Source: a virus
Lineage: Duplodnaviria > Heunggongvirae > Uroviricota > Caudoviricetes
IMG/VR virus record: IMGVR_UViG_2778261058_000021
Span: 1-9,670 of that record
DNA length: 9,670 nucleotides
Strand: one strand, 5' to 3'
Made by a program: the position numbers and the translations under genes. Shown here one piece after another: positions 1 to 9,670 of this stretch. How positions within the stretch are numbered: position 1 is the first letter of the stretch; each line of letters opens with the position of its first letter. The notes under the pieces were generated by a model. That model saw only the letters and a program-made list of their open reading frames with translations. It did no database searches and was not told where the DNA came from.

Positions 1-996
1 CTAACGAACCAGCCAGACCAGCATCAGGATAATCGCGACTAACAGTATCCACAGCACGGGACGCGTTGCCATATTTTGCAACGTGTCCATCATTGGTGGA
101 AAAGGATTAAGCAGCGGTTGCATATCACGCGGATCAATCCCTTTAACCCGCCGTTGATAAAGCTGATTAAGAATATCCTCGGCCTGGGCAGAAGAAAGCG
201 ATGATTGCGCAGAAAGGCCATATTTTTGCTGGATATATGCCGATAACGCCGCCAGTTCACTGGCATCTAAAGGTTGTTTTAGCGCCATCTGTAGTGATTC
301 CAGCGTCGGCGTATTTTGCTGGCTTAGCGTCTGACGCGCCTGCAGCCAGGTCACCAGATGGTTAAACAGTTTCGCTGGAATTAACTCGCCATCTTTCACC
401 CCGGAAAGTTCCAGCATCGATTGCCAGATCTGTTTGCTGGGTTCCCCCGTTGCCGCCGCAAGTTTGGTCACCAGCTGTTTAAGCGCATTGTGCTCCGCCG
501 GTAATAAAGGACGGTCGGTCGCCTCGCGCTGCTGCGGTTGCGGAATAACCATCTTCCCTTCCTGCAACAGGGTGAGAATGGTTTTTAATTGCTCCGGTGA
601 GAGCTGATTCAGCGGCGTCTGACCAAAGTTATGACGGATATAATCCGTGACCGCCTGACGATTATTCCCCAGACGTAAATACTCCCCTAATTGCGCTAAA
701 AGCTGGCGGGCAGAATGGCTTTTTTGCGCGGCCAGCAGACGTTGCGCCAGGTTGTGTTCAGCGGCAGGGAAGTGACGCGAAAGCAGCGGTGAATCTCCCG
801 ACAGACCAATATCGTGCCTGATACCCGCCCACAGTTCTGCTCTTTGCTGTTGCGTCAGTGAGGTCACTTTCGTCATTAAGCTTTCCAGCGAAGTACGTTG
901 CTGACTGGATAAAGGCTGATTGCCCGCGCCAGACGGCAGGTTATCTCCCTGACCTGGTGGCTGCCCAGGAGGAGGGCCGGAAATAGGTTGTATCAT
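1..996 (-). CDS. flk: flagella biosynthesis regulator Flk (complete, 331 aa)
   Basis: Complete ORF, ATG at 996-994 and TAG at 3-1. Pro/Gly/Gln-rich N-terminus (MIQPISGPPPGQPPGQ) and C-terminal hydrophobic anchor (VLWILLVAIILMLVWLV) match my recollection of E. coli Flk. Not verified by search. Confidence 0.85.
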   Translation of the reverse strand: MIQPISGPPPGQPPGQGDNLPSGAGNQPLSSQQRTSLESLMTKVTSLTQQQRAELWAGIRHDIGLSGDSPLLSRHFPAAEHNLAQRLLAAQKSHSARQLLAQLGEYLRLGNNRQAVTDYIRHNFGQTPLNQLSPEQLKTILTLLQEGKMVIPQPQQREATDRPLLPAEHNALKQLVTKLAAATGEPSKQIWQSMLELSGVKDGELIPAKLFNHLVTWLQARQTLSQQNTPTLESLQMALKQPLDASELAALSAYIQQKYGLSAQSSLSSAQAEDILNQLYQRRVKGIDPRDMQPLLNPFPPMMDTLQNMATRPVLWILLVAIILMLVWLVR

Positions 997-1135
997 TACG
1001 TATCCTTATACCTGAAATCTTCGCAAGTATGCCTGGCCGCGAGATTATGGCACACTTGTCCGGTTAACTCTCGTCTCATACAGGTAACACAAACGTGAAA
1101 ATCCTTGTTGATGAAAAAGATGATTGGTTAATTTA

Positions 1136-1159
1136 TTGATATAAAAGGATTTATATCAA
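1136..1159. promoter_or_regulatory. perfect inverted repeat TTGATATAAA-N4-TTTATATCAA in the divergent flk / orphan-gene intergenic region; candidate operator for a dimeric regulator
   Basis: Read directly from sequence: ttgatataaa agga tttatatcaa. Function is inferred only. Confidence 0.3.
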
Positions 1160-1315
1160 CGTATGTCCACGCAGTGACCACATTTTCGAGATATAGTTAA
1201 AGCCCGTAAAATATGCGGGCTTTATAATTCTTGCTTTGCCCTCTTTTCAAACCATAAAATTTGTGTGCCTTTTTGGGGTGGTTAGTTTTATCTTTGATAT
1301 TATGGAGAATTATTC

Positions 1316-2056
1316 ATGCTTCATTGGGTTTGTATAAAATGTCAGTCTAAAAATTCTACGAAGGAATCAGTGTGTCCTGCGTGTGGAACTTCTTTTTGGT
1401 CGACGCAGAAAAAAGAAAGGAGAGGGTGTTTATTGTTAGTTGTAATGTTCTTCGTTGTGTTTTGGGTTATTGGGCAATTATCCGGAAACGAATCCGATTC
1501 ACAGGTAAATAATATTCCATCGAAAGATCATATTAGCGATGAACTTGCTTTATCTGGAGTAGACAAGGCGAAACCGTATTCTTTTGTGCGTTATGATGAC
1601 ATAAGTTATGCGGGACGAAAGAGATTTAAGGTTTTTATAGTGTCGCCTGAGTCTCAAGATTTAGAATCAAGAGCTTCGACAGCAATGGCCGCGGCTATTG
1701 AGTGGCAGAAAGAGAAGAGAGCTGACTTTGTATCTGTGTTGCTTCTACCTACGGAAAATTCTGAAGGTAGTTATCGGTTGGCAATGGTTGATTATTCTCC
1801 GGATGGTTGCGGAACTGGTGCTGTATGTGATAATAAAAAATGGACTATATTGTCTAGTGACGTAATATTAACGAAATCGCAACTTCAATCTATATCCTTG
1901 TGGAATGAGTATAAGAAAAAGTTTGCGGGTAATGATGGGATTTTGGATTTAAAGGAAGAAAAGAAATTGAAGCAGTTTATTAGTAAACAGCTAAATATTC
2001 CTGTTAAGGATGTATTTACTCCAGATATTTTTCCTTTAAAGAAAATCGAAGATTAA
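1316..2056 (+). CDS. hypothetical membrane-anchored protein: N-terminal CxxC-N11-CxxC zinc ribbon, basic stretch, one TM helix, ~190 aa extracytoplasmic domain; AT-rich, probably horizontally acquired
   Basis: 246-aa ORF with GGAG about 10 nt upstream of the ATG. CIKCQ...CPACG motif, then QKKERRG, then hydrophobic CLLLVVMFFVVFWVIGQL. Codon usage is A/T-rich unlike flanking genes. A hairpin/terminator follows. I recognise no family. Confidence 0.7.
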   Translation: MLHWVCIKCQSKNSTKESVCPACGTSFWSTQKKERRGCLLLVVMFFVVFWVIGQLSGNESDSQVNNIPSKDHISDELALSGVDKAKPYSFVRYDDISYAGRKRFKVFIVSPESQDLESRASTAMAAAIEWQKEKRADFVSVLLLPTENSEGSYRLAMVDYSPDGCGTGAVCDNKKWTILSSDVILTKSQLQSISLWNEYKKKFAGNDGILDLKEEKKLKQFISKQLNIPVKDVFTPDIFPLKKIED

Positions 2057-2133
2057 CAAAATAAATAGACGAGACTGAATTAGTATTATTGTAATCTTTA
2101 ACTGGTACCCTCACTTGTGAGGGCACCAAAAAG

Positions 2134-2170
2134 AAAACCCGCAGTTTTTACGCTGCGGGTTTCTGCTTTG
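2134..2170. terminator. bidirectional rho-independent terminator between the convergent orphan gene and hok
   Basis: Stem cccgcag (2138-2144) / ctgcggg (2153-2159) with an 8-nt loop; A-run upstream and T-rich run downstream give a U-tract on both strands. A second hairpin, ccctcac-tt-gtgaggg, lies at 2108-2123. Confidence 0.6.
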
Positions 2171-2248
2171 GGATGTGTATAGGGTGCCTTATCAGTCTTG
2201 CCCTGACAACCGATTGACGGGGGAATCTCTTCCCCCGTCGCGGTTTCC

Positions 2249-2389
2249 TTACTGTTTACACTGTAAGAACGCCGCAAACTCCGCTCCCCAGAAGCTCATC
2301 CGTATCTCACACAGCGAACCGTGCAGCATCCAGATGATAAGGATCGCCGTCACGCAGAACGTGATGGCTGTAAGCGATTTTTGCGACAT
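2249..2389 (-). CDS. hok: Hok/Gef-family type I toxin (46 aa); not in the supplied ORF track
   Basis: Minus-strand translation MSQKSLTAITFCVTAILIIWMLHGSLCEIRMSFWGAEFAAFLQCKQ: N-terminal TM helix, then SLCEIR and AAFL.CK motifs typical of Hok proteins as I recall them (closest to HokA). AAGGAG lies 7 nt upstream of the ATG. TAA stop at 2251-2249. Confidence 0.8.
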   Translation of the reverse strand: MSQKSLTAITFCVTAILIIWMLHGSLCEIRMSFWGAEFAAFLQCKQ

Positions 2390-2611
2390 AGCGCTTGCTC
2401 CTTTTTTGGGGAGGCGCTAACCTATCACTTGTCTAGGGTAGATGGTTAGGGCCTCGGTTAAACAAAAATGTTTTCCGGGGCCTTTCCACATCCGGCCTTC
2501 AGGTATTCCCTCCAGCCATCAGCCGAAAGGCACCCGCGCGAATTCTAGCCTGGTTTTTTCCCTTGTTTCAATCCGTTGAGACTTATCAGCCTTCTGATGT
2601 AGAATTCCCGA

Positions 2612-2676
2612 CCGCAGACATTATTCAGTCACGCATTTGATACATGCTTCCGCCGGCGTTCGCGCCGGTTTTTTTG
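2612..2676 (+). ncRNA. candidate Sok-like antisense RNA (about 65 nt) opposite the hok leader
   Basis: Plus-strand -35 TTGAGA (2576-2581), 18-bp spacer, -10 TAGAAT (2600-2605), then a strong intrinsic terminator at 2651-2675. The size matches the known Sok RNA. Position relative to the true hok mRNA 5' end is not established. Confidence 0.25.
2651..2675 (+). terminator. rho-independent terminator on the plus strand
   Basis: Stem ccggcg (2653-2658) / cgccgg (2663-2668), loop ttcg, followed by seven T (2669-2675). No plus-strand protein gene ends here, so it probably terminates a small RNA. Confidence 0.55.
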
Positions 2677-2692
2677 TCCTGTTGCTGCGTAG

Positions 2693-2949
2693 ATCGTTAT
2701 GTGCGATCGATGCGCTGTATTGATCCTTTTTTCAGTTTAATTTTGACTCTTAATTTTACGCAGGCCGCGCCGCGTCTGGCTTCGTTGTTTGACGATTTTT
2801 TGATGCGATCCTCTCGTGATCGCTTTTTGTCTCACGTAAAGTATAAAAACCCTTTTAATATCATGCAGTTTTATTGCTTCTGCCATTTGTGCGATCGTAA
2901 AAACCTCTCTGAAAACTGCAAAAAATTTCAAAACGTGAAATTTCTGATC
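2693..2949. repeat. GATC (Dam methylation site) cluster in AT-rich non-coding DNA
   Basis: Seven GATC at 2693, 2705, 2722, 2807, 2818, 2893 and 2946 within about 257 bp (roughly one expected by chance); several sit in a recurring GCGATCG context. AT-rich runs are interspersed. Confidence 0.5.
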
Positions 2950-3055
2950 TTCGCTTTTCCCTCAGTTGCTGCGCGGGCTGGCGGTCATTTTTGCACGGCA
3001 GAAAACTGAAAAAGTGTTTCGACACAAAACCCGCGGGTTGGAGGGGGTAGCGCGG

Positions 3056-3099
3056 TTTACGTCACCTCACGCTTTACGTCACACCGTTTACGTGGTGTG
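3056..3099. repeat. three direct TTTACGT repeats with an embedded inverted repeat cacacc-N8-ggtgtg
   Basis: gTTTACGTcac (3056-3066), cTTTACGTcac (3072-3082), gTTTACGTggt (3086-3096); inverted repeat at 3080-3099. Lies just beyond the 3' end of the tail operon. Confidence 0.4.
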
Positions 3100-3151
3100 C
3101 GCATACAGCGCCGGAATGGCACGCAGAACGCATTAATCAGGTGGCAGATAT

Positions 3152-3179
3152 GGAAAACGCACGGCCTGAACCGTGCGTT
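3152..3179 (-). terminator. candidate intrinsic terminator of the minus-strand tail operon
   Basis: Perfect 9-bp stem aacgcacgg (3156-3164) / ccgtgcgtt (3171-3179), loop cctgaa. On the minus strand it is followed by only a short U-tract (about 4 U). About 40-60 nt downstream of the stop at 3218. Confidence 0.35.
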
Positions 3180-3217
3180 GCGTGATGGGGCGTTTATGTG
3201 GATTTTATGCCCGGTGA

Positions 3218-4915
3218 TTAGGCGATAAGGTCGCCGTATTTTTCGCGAAGGCTTGTAGCCTGTTGGGCGTCTGCGGCAAGTTCGCTGCTGTTTGTTGGTG
3301 CGCCAGTGTTGCTGTGGGTGTGGTTTGCAGTGTGTGTGGCCAGCAACTGAACCAGATCCAGAATATCAATCAACAACGTCAGCAGATTAAGTCCGGATTT
3401 TTCCCGTGAGCCACCGCGCCCAATAAATACAGTCGGGGCAGTAAATTCCAGGCCGCCGTCCGCCCGGCATGTTCTGCGGCCTCCCACGTTTTCGGTGAGG
3501 TTATGCTCGATGGTGGATGTCGCCCCTTTGAGTTTAGTCAGCAAATCCTGCGCTACCATCTGGATATGCTCACCGGCTGCGATCGCATAATGGCCAGTAG
3601 TAATGTGTTCTGTCTGACCTGTCATCAGCTTGCTGGTTCCCAGAACGCTGGTTATGTCGTTTGCCTGTACTGTTGTTGTTCTGGTTGTTGTTGTGCGTTC
3701 TTCCTGATCGCTGTTAATGGTTCGCCTGGCTGAATGCTCCCTGATTTGCTGGTCGGTTTCTCTGTGCCAGCTTCCGTCAGTCGTGACACGCTGAAACACT
3801 TCTGCGCGCTGTTGTTGCAATTGTTCGCCGGGCTTTACATTAGGCAGGTTATGACCAGCGGGTAAGATTTGCCTGATGACAGGTTTATCCGGTCGTCCTT
3901 CAATGTTGGATATTTCCACGATGGTGCCAGCCGGCGGGTAGGCAAAACATCCCGCCTCACTGCCAGCCATGGGGACGGGGAGCGGTACTGCCGGGTAAAC
4001 GGGCGTATCGCTTTTATCGTTGCCGTTCTCATCAAGCAACTGCACATCGACGGCGTAGCGTGGGCGGAAACTGTCGGCCACATCGCCCAGGGTGGCGGGC
4101 TCCGTTGGTGCAATGACGCGCGCCAGCCGGGTATGTAGCGTACCGCTGGCCAGTTCCGGAAACTGTGTTTCCATTTGTCTGCGTAATGGTGATTTGGAAA
4201 CAGGGCTGCCCGTGGCGGTAAGGCGCTCCCATGTCAGGGTCATTTTCTCGTTGTTGAGGGCTACACGGGTAATGCGCCCGGCCGGAAGGTTCACGCCCGG
4301 TCGCACAGTTTCCATAAACATGATGTCGATGCTGTTTCCGCCGCTTTGCCCGAGTGTGTACTGTTGCGGAATATCCGGCATTGTAATACTGGCAAATCGT
4401 GAATCAGCTGCGCTTCCCACAAATACAGAACCGTCCGGCATAGGGTGCCAGACGTAATCGCTGATACTGAATGCTCGCCCCAGTTGGCTGAGCAGTTGTG
4501 CTCCGCTGCCGCTGTGGGTGATGTAGGGAGTTGGTATGCTGACGTAATCCGCATCTGGCGTGATGAAAACGATGCCGCTTTGTTTACCCAGATTATCGAG
4601 TACCCCCCGTAACGTCGGGTGTTGCATGGAGCAAGGGAAATCAAAATCCAGCACAGCAGCTGCTTCACGGATAAAAAGGCGACGTGAGCCATTTTCAGCA
4701 GGTTGATCGCGCTCAATGTAGCCGGAGAAATAGCGCCATGCTTCACCGTCACGGCCGAGATCAATTTGTACCATTGCGCCGGCAAGGGGGTGTTCGGGTG
4801 ACAGATTGTTAACAGAAATGAAGCCGCGACCGGCGGCATTCAGGGTAAGAACAAGGTTTATATCGGCAATTTCCACCCGTTCGCCATTAATCATGCAGCG
4901 TTGTATCAATTTCAT
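3218..4915 (-). CDS. uncharacterised phage protein (565 aa); C-terminus has a metal-site-like HTANHTH motif resembling fibre/spike tips
   Basis: Long ORF whose ATG overlaps the upstream stop as ATGA (4912-4915); GAGGAAGG-like SD upstream. C-terminal ...LLTLLIDILDLVQLLATHTANHTHSNTGAPT resembles HxH tip motifs I recall in P2 gpV (LHTHKHPGDSGG) and in lambda Stf / T4 gp37 (GAHAHS). No match to P2 sheath or tube proteins. Confidence 0.6.
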   Translation of the reverse strand: MKLIQRCMINGERVEIADINLVLTLNAAGRGFISVNNLSPEHPLAGAMVQIDLGRDGEAWRYFSGYIERDQPAENGSRRLFIREAAAVLDFDFPCSMQHPTLRGVLDNLGKQSGIVFITPDADYVSIPTPYITHSGSGAQLLSQLGRAFSISDYVWHPMPDGSVFVGSAADSRFASITMPDIPQQYTLGQSGGNSIDIMFMETVRPGVNLPAGRITRVALNNEKMTLTWERLTATGSPVSKSPLRRQMETQFPELASGTLHTRLARVIAPTEPATLGDVADSFRPRYAVDVQLLDENGNDKSDTPVYPAVPLPVPMAGSEAGCFAYPPAGTIVEISNIEGRPDKPVIRQILPAGHNLPNVKPGEQLQQQRAEVFQRVTTDGSWHRETDQQIREHSARRTINSDQEERTTTTRTTTVQANDITSVLGTSKLMTGQTEHITTGHYAIAAGEHIQMVAQDLLTKLKGATSTIEHNLTENVGGRRTCRADGGLEFTAPTVFIGRGGSREKSGLNLLTLLIDILDLVQLLATHTANHTHSNTGAPTNSSELAADAQQATSLREKYGDLIA

Positions 4916-5487
4916 GTTTTCCCTTCCTCTTTCACGCTCCCGATGCCAACAGCATCCAGACCAGAGCCAACGGCATCATTGATTTTTTTCCAGAACGAAC
5001 TTTGTGTATTCATGCCTTTGTCTGGTGCCTGTTCGCTACCGTTCTGGGTCTGCTGTCTGGCGATGGTTTTCTGCGAACCGCTGCGTGCGGATGCTTTCTC
5101 TGGCACGCTTAATTTTTCCCTGAGAGTAAAGGTGACCTGCCAGTGCATTTTTCCCTGTTGTTCCGTGGCATCAATGCCACCAGAAAATACCCCCTGTCGC
5201 ATATTGATTGCCTTCGCGGTAGCGTTAGCAATGCGATATGTTTTTTTGGCACCGTTGCTTTCTGTTGCCTCCGCAAGCTGAAAAATACGGGTCAGAATAG
5301 CTTCATCGTTAAAATCAATAACCCCCGACACGCGCAGCTCTTTAGCCTTGTTTCCCTGCTGGGCGCTCGTGGTGCTGGTTGACTGTCCGGACATATCTTT
5401 GTCCGGTAGTTGCATGGTGGCGCTGACGGTGATGTTGCGCAGCAGAATGGCTTCCCCGTCAAGCGCAAGGACAATCATCTGGGTCAT
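4912..5487 (-). CDS. uncharacterised phage-associated protein (191 aa)
   Basis: ORF in the same operon; overlaps the upstream gene by 29 nt and the downstream gene by 4 nt (ATGA). Ser/Thr/Gln-rich with no recognisable catalytic motif. An internal later start is possible. Confidence 0.55.
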   Translation of the reverse strand: MTQMIVLALDGEAILLRNITVSATMQLPDKDMSGQSTSTTSAQQGNKAKELRVSGVIDFNDEAILTRIFQLAEATESNGAKKTYRIANATAKAINMRQGVFSGGIDATEQQGKMHWQVTFTLREKLSVPEKASARSGSQKTIARQQTQNGSEQAPDKGMNTQSSFWKKINDAVGSGLDAVGIGSVKEEGKT

Positions 5488-6172
5488 GTAGTGCTTCCCT
5501 TAGTGATGAGAGATTATCGCCGACGAACAGCATCACAGCTGTAAAAACCCACTCGGGGTGTGGGATGTTTTTTTGTATCAGCACTGCAGCCTGGCTAAGG
5601 ACTCCCTTGTAGCAAAAGCGCCACACCGGGCAAAATTTTTGCCGGAGTGCGGCCTGCTGATCAGCGATTTCCTGTAAGGCTTTATCTCTCGCATTCATGA
5701 ACTGATGCAGTGATGATGACAATGTTTCCGGTGATGTGGCGGCAGGATTGGCTGCCTGTGCAATGGTTGCCGCCAGCGACATGCTGCGAGTGGTCTGTGT
5801 CGACAGCATTATCGGTTCCGGAAGTGATGTTGCCGGTCTGGCGGGGATTTGCATTCTGCTGATGGACAGTGAAAGCTGGCTGGAGATCATGCGGGACATT
5901 CGTCCCACCTCCGGCAACGGAAATGCGCCTGAAAATTGCCTGGCGAGTGATAAAAACTCGCCAGCAGAAGGAGCGCAAAATAACAGCGCCACAATGTCCT
6001 TTTCCGTGTTTTCTTTCAAATAGGGTAAAAGTGCAGATACAGCATTTTCGGGGCTGAGATAACGCCCCGATGGTTTGATGTTTCCGGTATTTTCTGACCA
6101 TGGATGAAGGCAAACCACAGAGCATTTAATGTTCATGGCCGACGGGCGCAGAATTGCCTTTTCCCATTTCAT
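5459..6172 (-). CDS. uncharacterised phage-associated protein (237 aa; alternative start at 6136 gives 225 aa)
   Basis: ATG at 6172 overlaps the stop of the upstream gene (ATGA at 6169-6172), implying translational coupling. No family recognised. Confidence 0.55.
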   Translation of the reverse strand: MKWEKAILRPSAMNIKCSVVCLHPWSENTGNIKPSGRYLSPENAVSALLPYLKENTEKDIVALLFCAPSAGEFLSLARQFSGAFPLPEVGRMSRMISSQLSLSISRMQIPARPATSLPEPIMLSTQTTRSMSLAATIAQAANPAATSPETLSSSLHQFMNARDKALQEIADQQAALRQKFCPVWRFCYKGVLSQAAVLIQKNIPHPEWVFTAVMLFVGDNLSSLREALHDPDDCPCA

Positions 6173-6750
6173 TCTGACTCTCCAGCCTGAAAAGCGCGGA
6201 TGTCGGCAAGATTATTCAGGCTATCCAGCACGTCCTTCATCTGTCGCTGACGCTGATAAATCTCGTCATTGCGATCGACCTGCGCCTGCGCCAGTGCTGT
6301 TGCCAGTTCTTCCAGTTCCGGCATCGACAGTTTCACCTGTTGATTATCGGCGTCACCCCATGCCATAACGTCCCGAGCTGTGTCGGATTTTGATGCCATC
6401 ACCACCGGATAAAGGCGAGCCAGTGAGTCGGGGCCAGCGTTCCAGATGTGGCCGTTCCATTCGAACGTGAACGGCTTCGCTTCCTGTTCTGTGCGCCACA
6501 CCTCGATTTCCCGCTTTTTGGCATCTTTTGCCGCTGCGATAAGTTCCGGCGTGACGGTGAACGGGGCGATTTCGCCCCATTTGCCGCTCTGTAACTCTTC
6601 CCAGATGCGCTGGCCTGTCGGTGCGGTATCGTCCTGCATGGCGGTATACGGGACGAATTCCGTTTCACCTTCAAATAACACCTCGCAGTCAACCGCATCA
6701 TTTTCGAGATAATGGGCGTTTCTGATGCCCTTTACCGCTCTGATTTTCAT
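6169..6750 (-). CDS. uncharacterised phage tail-associated protein (193 aa); possibly a chaperone/assembly factor for the adjacent fibre-like protein
   Basis: AAGGAG 8 nt upstream of the ATG at 6750; follows the 648-aa fibre-like gene after a 14-nt gap. Lacks the C-terminal motif of P2 gpG-type Tfa (W/Y..VL..RVD...WP), so a chaperone role is inferred from position only. Confidence 0.6.
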   Translation of the reverse strand: MKIRAVKGIRNAHYLENDAVDCEVLFEGETEFVPYTAMQDDTAPTGQRIWEELQSGKWGEIAPFTVTPELIAAAKDAKKREIEVWRTEQEAKPFTFEWNGHIWNAGPDSLARLYPVVMASKSDTARDVMAWGDADNQQVKLSMPELEELATALAQAQVDRNDEIYQRQRQMKDVLDSLNNLADIRAFQAGESE

Positions 6751-6764
6751 GTTCTATCTCCTTG

Positions 6765-8711
6765 TTACTCAATGCGCACGAACAAACAGATAAAGCCTCT
6801 GTCGCCATACGTTGCACGATAACCTGACAGGGCCTGATAACGACCGGGAAAACTGAATGCCCCAGCACCACCCGCCTTTACTGAAGGTGTGGAACCGTAT
6901 GTCCCGGAATTATTAATTGCACAGTCGATAGCCACAGGACCAAGTCGCGACCCCGCCACTACATCCCCAAGGCCAATTTTTATTTCCTTATCCCCTGCCG
7001 CTGTTCCCTGATAGACCGCGAGAATAAGAGAGCCAACTGCCGGATATTTGTAATATGAGTACGGGCCATTGCCCGCTGTCCGGGACAACAAGAACGCCAG
7101 CGAATCGCCGTCGTAAATAATGGGGCTTACTGTTGCATTCCAGTTGTTTCCACTCCAGCGGTAAGTCAGGCGATGAATGCTGTGTTCGCCTTCGTAATAC
7201 TGGTTAAAACACAGCAGCGTTTTGAATTTGCGTATTGCATCTGATTCGTCATTATCAAAGGGCGACCACATCACATCCATGATGCCGTTAAATTTCGTGG
7301 TGCCCGCCAGTAGTGTGGAAGAGTCCGCAATACTGACCGCATAACGCCCCGGGGTGGCCTCTTTCAGCCATTCAGCAAAATCAGCCTGACCGTTAAATGC
7401 CAGGGCTTCGGTGCTGGTAAATGCCTGACCGAATCCATACATGCCGGACAGCGCCAGCCTGCCCGGTGTACGATCCCAGATATCAGATTGCGCGTCTTTT
7501 ACAGTTGTGTTGCCAGTTAATGGAGTAAGATCTCTCCATACAACAGGGGCTCCGTAGTCAGAGCCGCGAACGCAGGAAAGAATACGTCCGTCTCTTCCGT
7601 AAAACAGAATAAGTTTTGTTGCTGTCTGGCTGGTTTTGTCATTCTGCCAGTTGTCCAGCCAGATAAATTCGACCACACCAGTTAAATCACCTGATGACAT
7701 TGATGATGTGTAATACCGACCCGGACCTGTGTTCATGCATATCAACGCAAGCTCATCAAGATTTGTAATGCCGAGCACCATCCCCTCGTGCTCTGTCATT
7801 CCGTATCCAAATGCCCCCGGTAGCGCCAGCCTGCCTGGTGTGCGGTCGCGGATATTGCTCTGGGGCTCCATCGTCGCAGCCGCTTTCAGTTCAAGTTCCG
7901 TGCGCATGGCTTCAGGTGTGTCCAGTGCCAGTAATGCGCGGGCTTTTTCTGACAGCGGAGAGAGAGAAACATTCCCGTCCTGATTAAAGTACAGAAGATT
8001 ATCTGCCCGTTTCGTCAGTTCACTGATTGCCGTCAGCAAATCGTTCAGCGGTTGTTTACCCGCCAGCGCGTTAATGACCGTCGCCGAAAAGTTCGGGTCA
8101 TTGCCCAGCGCCGCTGCCAGTTCGTTCAGTGTGTCCAGGGCTTCCGGTGATGAGTCAACCAGTGCGGCGAGCAGTTTGCGAACAAACGCTGCGTTCGCCA
8201 TCTCCAGCCCGACCGCATCGTCTGGCGGAGTTGGTGTGGTTGGCGTGCCGGTGAACGCCGGGCTGTCCAGTGGCGCTTTTTTGTTTATTTCAGGAAAAAG
8301 ATCTACCTGCCAGCTCTGTGGAGGAACGGTAATTTGCGCAGCCTGAGCAATGCCGCTGTATATAATTGTGAAATTACGAATAAGTGATTCGCCTGTTACT
8401 TTTTGTTGAACAGGCGTCTTTATTACGCCGCATAGTGTTCCGCTGGCCTGATGGATAAGGCAAATCCAGTCATAACTGAATGCACAGTCATCAGGAACAA
8501 CCGCGCTACACACAATATTGTTCGGGCTTAACTGGCCGTAGGTCAGTTCATTCACAGCATATGTGATTTTTTCTTCCGGAACGGTATTATCTTCGCGCGC
8601 TGGTTCCCGCTCCATCAGAGCAAAAATAATAGCGTCAGGGCGTGCAGGTAAATTACTGGCTGTGCATTCAGCAACCCACTTTTCAAATGCTTTCGTCAAC
8701 AGTGCGCTCAT
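6765..8711 (-). CDS. tail fibre-like protein (648 aa) with an unrecognised ~145-aa N-terminal domain, a conserved fibre collar segment and an internally duplicated C-terminal region
   Basis: Segment NKKAPLDSPAFTGTPTTPT...AALVDSSPEALDTLNELAAALGNDPNFSATVINALAGKQP matches the conserved segment I recall in P2 gpH and lambda Stf. The C-terminal half holds two diverged copies of a domain starting QS.I.DRTPGRLAL.G..G.G. Starts 6 nt after the tfa stop. Confidence 0.8.
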   Translation of the reverse strand: MSALLTKAFEKWVAECTASNLPARPDAIIFALMEREPAREDNTVPEEKITYAVNELTYGQLSPNNIVCSAVVPDDCAFSYDWICLIHQASGTLCGVIKTPVQQKVTGESLIRNFTIIYSGIAQAAQITVPPQSWQVDLFPEINKKAPLDSPAFTGTPTTPTPPDDAVGLEMANAAFVRKLLAALVDSSPEALDTLNELAAALGNDPNFSATVINALAGKQPLNDLLTAISELTKRADNLLYFNQDGNVSLSPLSEKARALLALDTPEAMRTELELKAAATMEPQSNIRDRTPGRLALPGAFGYGMTEHEGMVLGITNLDELALICMNTGPGRYYTSSMSSGDLTGVVEFIWLDNWQNDKTSQTATKLILFYGRDGRILSCVRGSDYGAPVVWRDLTPLTGNTTVKDAQSDIWDRTPGRLALSGMYGFGQAFTSTEALAFNGQADFAEWLKEATPGRYAVSIADSSTLLAGTTKFNGIMDVMWSPFDNDESDAIRKFKTLLCFNQYYEGEHSIHRLTYRWSGNNWNATVSPIIYDGDSLAFLLSRTAGNGPYSYYKYPAVGSLILAVYQGTAAGDKEIKIGLGDVVAGSRLGPVAIDCAINNSGTYGSTPSVKAGGAGAFSFPGRYQALSGYRATYGDRGFICLFVRIE

Positions 8712-8717
8712 TACTTC

Positions 8718-9272
8718 TTAATTCTTGCTAATGTTCTGCGGTAATTCTGGCCATACAATCGCGGCATACGATGCTTTATCTGTAACCTGGCTGAATGTCA
8801 TCTCCCGTAACGTTTTTGTATAAATACGGCATGCTTTCAGTTTTTCCTTGTCTTCGTCGCTGATTAATCCCAGCAGCAGGTCTTTTTCCCACTCGCTAGT
8901 TATGATGCTGATCTGTTTTAACAGAGCATCACGCTCATCTTCCGCTTTAAGTTTGTGGTCGAAAACAAATTCATCATTGCGATAAAACCAGTATCCCGAC
9001 GCCTCAATGCGACGATTAGCGGTAATATCCGGCAATTCAATCACACTTTTATTTTCCGGGCAGATTGAGGTGATGTCTTTTCCGACCCAGACCACTTCGC
9101 CAGTTTCGGCATAAATAACTTTCAGAGTGTCTGGCTGAAATTTTTCCTGGGCTTCGTGCCATTCCTGGCCATCATCTGAGAACAGCCACAATAAAAATTT
9201 ATGCTGCCGCGCCAGCTGGTATTGCTCAATTGTTTTGGGGTTTTGTGCCGTAAGATTTTTTAAGTGCATCAT
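8718..9272 (-). CDS. tail fibre assembly protein (P2 gpG / Mu U family, 184 aa)
   Basis: N-terminus MMHLKNLTAQNPKTIEQYQL closely resembles the P2 gpG / Mu U N-terminus (M.HLKN....NPKTKEQYQL) as I recall it; PDITANRR and C-terminal WPELP motifs are also present. Starts 2 nt after the upstream fibre stop. Confidence 0.85.
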   Translation of the reverse strand: MMHLKNLTAQNPKTIEQYQLARQHKFLLWLFSDDGQEWHEAQEKFQPDTLKVIYAETGEVVWVGKDITSICPENKSVIELPDITANRRIEASGYWFYRNDEFVFDHKLKAEDERDALLKQISIITSEWEKDLLLGLISDEDKEKLKACRIYTKTLREMTFSQVTDKASYAAIVWPELPQNISKN

Positions 9273-9274
9273 GA

Positions 9275-9670
9275 TTACAAACTCGCTACATTCCGCCAGA
9301 CGCCATTAATCAGAACCTGTACCGGGCGGGCATTGGCCCAGTCCATACTTTCACCACCATCAAGACCGCTGATAAGGTGACCTGATGGTGCATTCCCGCC
9401 ACGCCCAATACCAATGGCACTGCCCAGACGCACATCCTGTACACCGCCTGTTTTGGCCTGATAGCGGGCATCAAAGTTTCCGTAGTTTGATGGAACCATC
9501 TGCCCGTTTACAGCGAACGTTATACTGTTATCCGTATTCCTCTGACTGTAAAAATGCCAGCCGGAATCATCGCCAAGCTCTGCAACTACAGGTCGGGATG
9601 AATTACCCCATAAACTAAACGTTGCGTTTTTCGTGGAGTTGTTGGCGCTGGATAACGTGAATTTTTTAGC
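9275..9670 (-). CDS. tail fibre protein, C-terminal part only (P2 gpH-like); the reading frame stays open to the window edge
   Basis: I translated the frame upstream of the listed 74-aa ORF and it stays open to 9670: ...NSTKNATFSLWGNSSRPVVAELGDDSGWHFYSQRNTDNSITFAVNGQMVPSNYGNFDARY...LINGVWRNVASL. This is close to the P2 gpH C-terminus as I remember it (STKNITFNLWGASTRPVVAELGDEAGWHFYSQRNTDNSVIFAVNGQMQPSNWGNFDSRY...INGTWYNVAQV). TAA at 9277-9275. Confidence 0.85.
   Translation of the reverse strand, partial: AKKFTLSSANNSTKNATFSLWGNSSRPVVAELGDDSGWHFYSQRNTDNSITFAVNGQMVPSNYGNFDARYQAKTGGVQDVRLGSAIGIGRGGNAPSGHLISGLDGGESMDWANARPVQVLINGVWRNVASL

Follow-up and report, generated by a model that had tools for sequence, protein, structure and literature searches.

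The window analysed here is a 9,670-nt stretch of DNA (IMG/VR record IMGVR_UViG_2778261058_000021, positions 1 to 9,670) that consists of one prophage end and the adjoining Escherichia coli chromosome, and its phage genes all lie on the minus strand. Our subject is the second tail-fibre gene of this prophage, hereafter fibre 2, which encodes a protein of 648 amino acids (aa) and whose open reading frame (ORF) starts with MSALLTKAFEKW. An identical protein is deposited in NCBI/ENA (P0001), homologues number ~7,700 in all, and dozens of variants of 645–648 aa are known from Escherichia and Salmonella. We consider it quite probable that the prophage is an HP1-like myovirus (Peduoviridae-type) integrated next to E. 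coli flk and that fibre 2 is its second, accessory and modular tail fibre. It is the second fibre gene of its cluster with an N-terminal domain of the family PF12571, and it sits in a contractile-tail baseplate cluster, after the baseplate J and gpI-like genes and directly before a chaperone gene (seen in L005, a public contig with the identical protein, and in L001). The parts of the gene, and the chaperone gene next to it, are as follows.

6765..8711, minus strand: second tail-fibre gene (fibre 2), 648 aa, from the ORF call and matches to tail-fibre PHROGs
8283..8711, minus strand: N-terminal baseplate-attachment domain, aa 1–143, Pfam PF12571
7866..8282, minus strand: collar and shaft, aa 144–282, from identity to gpH and a match to PDB 9d93
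7494..7865, minus strand: knob-like domain A, aa 283–406, profile match, A-type subfamily
7822..7855, minus strand: head of knob A, first copy of a shared DNA stretch (..IRDRTPGRLAL), gene nt 857–890
7107..7493, minus strand: knob-like domain B, aa 407–535, profile match
7450..7483, minus strand: head of knob B, second copy of the shared DNA stretch, gene nt 1229–1262
6768..7106, minus strand: C-terminal tip domain, aa 536–648, presumed receptor-binding part, from the structure model and the position after the last knob
6169..6750, minus strand: DUF4376 gene, 193 aa, presumed chaperone of fibre 2, PF14301 (E 9.7e-16)

The N-terminus had been called unknown in a preliminary description of this DNA, and it turns out to be a member of an established attachment family. 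PF12571 is the sole Pfam match of fibre 2, and it covers aa 3–137 on profile positions 7–141 of 150 with an expectation value (E) of 1.3e-11 and 45.2 bits (cut-off 23). The gpH fibre of phage P2 belongs to the same family with 193 bits, so the remark that the N-terminus does not resemble that of gpH holds for pairwise comparison only; BLASTP between the two N-termini is insignificant (E 0.09), and this accounts for the impression given in that description. A closer relative is found in fibre 1, the other fibre of the same prophage, whose N-terminus is 38% identical (E 5e-25), and the domain is 25–32% identical to its counterparts in the fibres of HP1, HP2, K139, ESSI-2, SW3 and others. PF08400, the N-terminal domain of Stf-type fibres, does not match fibre 2, and judged by its sequence fibre 2 is not a side tail fibre of the Stf type; only the distal modules are common to both. 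A scan of genome contigs with the N-terminal domain returned one locus, in E. albertii, and provides no gauge of how frequent the two-fibre layout is. The ~500 distal residues after this domain have no Pfam or NCBIfam model, and the guanine plus cytosine (GC) content is 0.457 in the N-terminal domain and 0.571 in the collar.

The collar had been recognized as conserved from the sequence, and this is borne out by 54% identity between aa 138–276 and aa 244–382 of P2 gpH (E 2e-34). It also matches PDB entry 9d93, ‘tail collar fibers gp4’ (E 9e-11), and it was the only part of fibre 2 to match in a sequence search of the PDB. At a finer scale the collar is a mosaic of collar 1 and collar 2 of Stf-type fibres.

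Two diverged copies of a domain of ~125 aa had been described for the C-terminal half; the copies are confirmed at ~124 aa, and the last 113 aa form a separate tip that is not part of the repeat. Copies A and B are offset by 124 aa (372 nt) and are 26% identical. Their Smith-Waterman alignment scores 110, against 27.5 ± 4.7 for shuffled sequences (0 of 2000 shuffles as high), and when the head motif is left out it scores 44 against 26 ± 4.7 (10 of 2000 as high); plain BLASTP of fibre 2 against itself does not report the repeat. A profile made of A-type copies from other proteins only matches B of the window with an independent E of 3e-13, and a profile excluding all A-type, knob-B-type and window sequences matches both A (1e-22) and B (3e-26). 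Knob A belongs to the A-type subfamily, marked by a WLDN motif, which is the first member of pairs in other fibres, and the order of an A-type copy followed by one of another type recurs in the 50%-identity clusters P0059, P0126, P0127 and P0132. Since A-type copies lead the pairs in several unrelated clusters, we regard A and B, on their sequences, as old paralogues that do not stem from a recent duplication.

To survey the domain, a profile made from five copies was run against a set of 1.84 billion representative proteins (E ≤ 1e-3). It was found in 92 representative clusters with one to three copies each; about 18 of the 92 hold two or three copies, and in about 10 of those the copies are directly adjacent. 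Its head, with the consensus D-R-T-x-G-R-L-A-x-x-G-x-x-G-x-G, is nearly invariant in 47 diverse copies. A Pfam scan of full-length representatives of at least 300 aa assigned the N-termini to PF08400 in 35 of 65 proteins and to PF12571 in 12 of 65. The family is small yet recurrent, and fibre 2 is not the only gene with such an architecture. A knob fold is an antiparallel sheet of five to six strands, against one face of which loops and in some cases a short helix are packed; in knob-domain fibres (R-pyocin, phi11 gp45, phage K gp144, T4 gp34) each knob is made by three chains around the fibre axis. In structure models, which were of monomers only, both copies are predicted to be knob-like domains, within a set of folds to which the tandem R-pyocin knobs also belong. 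The structures listed for the repeated unit are the AS12 tailspike, the phi812 receptor-binding proteins, the Mu fibre, T4 gp34, the R2 pyocin fibre, phi11 gp45 and phage K gp144.

The tip is modelled with a predicted local distance difference test score (pLDDT) above 90, and in 65 representative proteins it comes immediately after the last knob. No solved structure matches the 113-aa tip significantly, although the tip was not searched on its own, and thus the idea of a duplicated lectin-like tip is left without support: the duplicated copies model as knob-like, and among the models of the copies and the tip no lectin-type beta-sandwich fold was found. Among isolated phages, 11 records carry distant relatives of knob B and tip with 29–36% identity, and since these are the only ones, no receptor can be deduced by homology. 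The DUF4376 gene has an AAGGAG Shine-Dalgarno sequence and starts 14 nt past the fibre 2 stop, and the same pairing of the tip with a downstream DUF4376 gene is seen in L001, L002, L003, L004 and L009. In Alteromonas phages DUF4376 counts among the tail fibre chaperones (PMC10579305), and by analogy the folding of fibre 2 presumably depends on this protein.

The distal parts of fibre 2 have relatives of very different closeness. Knob B and tip (aa 408–648) share 95% identity with the C-terminal part of an E. coli Stf-type fibre of 1037 aa, whereas collar and knob A are only ~63% identical to the same protein. Knob B is 93–97% identical to the knobs of other genes, and in the Mu-like prophage of strain ETEC1732 the identity to the window is 93% for knob B, 97% for the tip and 83% for the chaperone. 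It follows from the contrast between 93–97% and ~63% that these parts came from different sources, and together with the GC jump at the end of the N-terminal domain this agrees with the chimeric fibre of the preliminary description. In related prophages, defined by the same chromosomal site or the same N-terminal domain, the N-terminal domain of fibre 2 is conserved and the protein varies in length, with 431, 524, 645–648 or 285 aa. In strain STEC308 the 431-aa fibre 2 has an N-terminal domain 90% identical to ours, and its distal part is different, with one knob and without the collar. In E. albertii NBRC 107761 (L010:5001-6941) the slot holds a 285-aa protein with an N-terminal domain 72% identical and a repetitive C-terminus, and an unrelated 352-aa ORF stands next to it in place of the DUF4376 gene. 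Matches of 1140 nt in E. coli W-type and enterotoxigenic E. coli (ETEC) genomes were considered as one-knob alleles and rejected, as they are the last module of Stf-type fibres of ~1040 aa.

Compared with the allele of strain A36, fibre 2 has a dN/dS ratio (nonsynonymous over synonymous substitution rate) of 0.24 overall and 0.12–0.36 in every segment, and by this measure it is under purifying selection. The tip is the most divergent segment between the two alleles (dS 1.34, dN 0.25), as expected for a receptor-binding part that would be swapped.

The DNA stretch shared by the two knob heads had been noticed as nearly identical, and it is 85% identical over 34 nt with an exact run of 14 nt (self-blastn E 6e-6); a repeat search lengthens this to 55 nt (75% identity, spacing 372). 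It codes for the conserved knob head DRTPGRLAL. We propose that it acts as a joint at which modules are spliced and as a site of unequal crossing-over, because of a crossover in a one-knob variant, a knob-B-type head on knob A and a switch of template at the joint. The one-knob variant, P0103 in L004 (524 aa), equals gene nt 1–890 joined to 1229–1947, and therefore its crossover falls inside the shared stretch. The head of knob A in the window carries the knob-B-type codons ACA CCA GGC AGG CTG GCG, including the rare AGG, as against the head DSTEGRVAL with codons ACG GAA GGC CGT GTT GCG in A-type knobs of Stf genes. When compared with the Stf gene of ETEC1732, in which B' denotes the last knob of the Stf-type fibre, nt 766–885 follow the collar 2/B' template at 0.90–0.97 identity, and in the next 30 nt, from the 3' end of the A-head stretch, the A template is matched at 0.90 and collar 2/B' at 0.50.

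Several points weigh against this reading and against that of fibre 2 as a whole. With the peptide held fixed, 23 of 27 head positions are identical where 19.6 ± 1.75 are expected (P ~0.05), and 5 of 9 head codons are identical (P ~0.09, codons drawn from local usage), so that the head DNA is only marginally more alike than expected and the case for recombination rests on codon type and junctions. These codon types and junction positions were compared with two Stf genes only, the one-knob variant is known from a single contig of 3.3 kb, and the incorporation of fibre 2 into virions is inferred. The marginal P values, and a head motif that is nearly invariant in the 47 copies, are what one would see if the similarity of the head DNA were a by-product of selection on the peptide with no role for recombination. 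We hold this to be unlikely, since Stf A-type heads differ in both peptide and codons while knob A of the window has a knob-B-type head, since identity to collar 2/B' falls exactly at the end of the stretch, and since the 524-aa variant crosses over inside it. An origin of the pair in a recent tandem duplication within the gene, with gene conversion keeping a stretch of ~26 nt identical, is very improbable. The copies are indeed adjacent at an exact offset of 372 nt, and the rare AGG codon and the 14-nt exact run occur in both heads, but an identity of 26%, subfamilies that keep their order in four other clusters, and a knob B much closer to outside genes than the collar and knob A are, which indicates different sources, all speak against it. 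The gene conversion that had been suggested comes near to the recombination proposed here; a recent duplication finds no support.

A further possibility concerns the gene as a whole, namely that fibre 2 is a recombination leftover or a spare cassette and that only fibre 1 is used in the virion. Its ATG lies only 6 nt (gaagta) past the TAA stop of tfa, the assembly gene of fibre 1, and its ribosome-binding site is weak; there is only one fibre gene in isolated HP1-like phages, Salmonella phage SW3 for instance having a fibre gene, tfa and then hypothetical genes with no second fibre; and the E. albertii slot holds a truncated protein of 285 aa. Against this stand the full-length alleles of 645–648 aa in dozens of clusters of Escherichia and Salmonella, the low dN/dS in every segment, a matched chaperone gene next to fibre 2 with a strong ribosome-binding site, and the recurrence of this arrangement, from fibre 1 and tfa to fibre 2 and DUF4376, in Mu-like and other myovirus prophages, so that a spare cassette seems quite improbable to us. 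The short distance to tfa had been read as a sign that fibre 2 belongs to the fibre operon, and so it does, being the second fibre gene there and having a chaperone of its own; for this reason an alternative receptor-binding protein, as had been suggested, is plausible, although the duplicated unit is not its tip. We also considered an invertible segment of alternative fibres, as in Mu S/S', P1 and e14, which would call for alternative C-terminal exons in opposite orientation between inverted crossover sites and for an invertase, and rejected it: both fibre genes and both chaperone genes lie on one strand. Inverted pairs within 6100–9670 are only of 14–15 nt, and no invertase gene is present in the window or L005.

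The remaining genes of the window that flank fibre 2 are listed below, and the minus-strand order is fibre 1, tfa, fibre 2, DUF4376, the 237-aa gene, HP1_ORF34 and the 565-aa baseplate gene.

9275..9670, minus strand: 3' end of the fibre 1 gene, cut by the window edge, tail-fibre PHROGs
8718..9272, minus strand: tail fibre assembly protein of fibre 1 (Caudo_TAP, tfa), PF02413 (E 4.5e-19)
5459–6172, minus strand: gene of a 237-aa protein, phrog_31292 and phrog_1677, without a Pfam family
4912–5487, minus strand: HP1_ORF34 baseplate-complex protein, 191 aa, PF25759 (E 1e-53)
3218–4915, minus strand: 565-aa ‘baseplate protein’, phrog_2258 (E 8e-233)
1–996, minus strand: flk, 99.5% identity to E. 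coli flk

The complete fibre 1 gene in L005 encodes 608 aa with PF12571 and PF03406, and the rest of the L005 cluster includes a DUF2586 sheath, HP1 Orf24, holin, M15 peptidase, tape measure, DUF2590, baseplate J and gpI-like genes. This gene content places the prophage with the HP1-like phages within the P2 group, and the locus adjoins hok, flk and fabB. The 237-aa and HP1_ORF34 genes overlap by 29 nt, and both are kept downstream of the fibre genes in SW3 and in every related prophage seen. The 565-aa protein has no Pfam match and a weak VgrG-like one (TIGR01646, E 4e-4, aa 314–365), and it may be a spike or hub-like part specific to HP1-type tails. No match in NCBIfam was obtained for fibre 2, the DUF4376 protein or the two hypothetical proteins, and Rfam at gathering thresholds returned nothing in the window. 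A consensus scan of the minus strand between the phage genes gave no promoter-like sites and only weak terminator-like matches.

Two other myovirus prophages, L002 (NZ_CP026085.1, 2544213–2557352) and L003 (ETEC1732), also have fibre 1, tfa, fibre 2 and DUF4376 in this order; one of the two is Mu-like and carries mom and com. The second fibre of both is ~1040 aa long with an N-terminus of the lambda Stf type (PF08400) and follows a baseplate J cluster; a side-fibre anchor of siphovirus type in contractile-tail prophages is odd. The L002 record is labelled DH5alpha, yet its prophage region is common to E. coli W-type genomes, and the strain label is doubtful.

At the chromosomal side of the window, 2100–3220 is ~1.1 kb without a convincing ORF and probably represents the prophage end or attachment region. 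Terminator-like hairpins number 21 in 2000–9670, against 9.1 ± 3.2 in shuffled sequences, and about half of them fall within 2100–3220. A 46-aa ORF at 2249–2389 on the minus strand lies between a DUF4875 gene and the prophage end; a Hok/Gef family toxin is annotated at its position in strains A36 and STEC308, and no Sok-type antisense RNA for it was found with Rfam at the gathering threshold. The DUF4875 protein, with an N-terminal zinc-ribbon, is encoded at 1316–2056 on the plus strand between flk and the prophage. Of 5426 complete E. coli genomes only 7 have its region (at least 80% coverage of a 2.1-kb query), and therefore this gene probably belongs to the mobile element and not to the core genome.

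We can now return to fibre 2 as a modular second fibre and outline how it might work and how it might have been assembled. The PF12571 domain, a paralogue of that of fibre 1, comes first and presumably docks a trimer on the baseplate; the gpH-like collar and shaft form the second module, and knob-like domain A and then knob-like domain B the third and fourth; the 113-aa tip is the fifth, with receptor binding as its presumed role, and its folding presumably depends on the DUF4376 protein encoded downstream. In this scheme the N-terminal domain would be the constant part of a gene slot, and all of the distal parts would be swapped by recombination. Knob B, tip and chaperone form a cassette that is held in common, almost unchanged, with the Stf-type fibres of other E. 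coli prophages. The knob-B-type DNA at both heads would provide the microhomology that joins modules, and unequal crossing-over between the heads could remove or add a knob.

In a wider and more tentative version, which we put forward as possible at less than even confidence, fibre 2 and its DUF4376 gene would be a portable cassette found in HP1-like, Mu-like and related Escherichia myovirus prophages, with distal modules in common with PF08400 Stf-type fibres. Particles would then bear two sets of fibres on paralogous PF12571 anchors, and the knob head would serve as a recombination linker by which the number of knobs and the type of tip are reshuffled between phage families. What the analysis offers is a definition of distal units, namely the ~124-aa knob-like domain with its head motif, the ~113-aa tip and the DUF4376 partner, and of how these combine. 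The joints at aa ~143, ~255 and ~295 and at the knob heads are natural splice points and could be of use when chimeric fibres are designed to engineer host range. In practical terms the gain is modest, and the understanding of tail fibres is unchanged. Mosaic fibres, tandem knobs and the exchange of fibre parts between unrelated phages are all long established, and fibre 2 is an ordinary mosaic tail fibre of a known architecture type in a variable second-fibre slot. The preliminary description had itself held that a standard attachment domain and a duplication widespread in ordinary fibres would make it unremarkable; the attachment domain is standard and the duplication recurs in other fibres, and by that measure the gene is therefore unremarkable.

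Among known systems, the closest are the R1 and R2 pyocin fibres of Pseudomonas aeruginosa (PA0620; PDB 6CL6 and 6CU2) and fibres of the P2 gpH class. Like the R2 pyocin fibre, fibre 2 has an N-terminus that presumably binds the particle, a rod or shaft, two tandem domains modelled as knob-like, a separate C-terminal domain that presumably binds the receptor, and a chaperone gene downstream. The tandem knobs of the R2 pyocin fibre derive from an old duplication and are 20% identical (PMC6116203), as against 26% in fibre 2. The knobs of fibre 2, however, measure ~124–129 aa compared with ~83 aa in the pyocin, and there is no detectable sequence similarity between them. Unlike the R-pyocin fibre, fibre 2 has no long shaft separating its second knob from the tip, a lectin fold was not found in the tip, its chaperone is of the DUF4376 and not the Caudo_TAP family, and it is the second fibre gene of its element. 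The likeness to P2 gpH lies in the collar and in the N-terminal Pfam family. With Stf-type fibres such as P0059 (1037 aa), fibre 2 has in common the head motifs, the knob spacing of 124 aa and the type of chaperone (83% identity), whereas the N-terminal domain is PF12571 in fibre 2 and PF08400 in the Stf type, and the Stf-type fibre has two collars and three knobs where fibre 2 has one collar and two knobs. The HP1-like phages HP1, HP2, K139, ESSI-2 and SW3 have a homologous N-terminal domain and the same genes on the flanks, with baseplate J, a gpI-like gene, HP1_ORF34 and a large baseplate protein, but they carry one fibre gene with a Caudo_TAP gene, and here a second fibre gene and DUF4376 are inserted after these.
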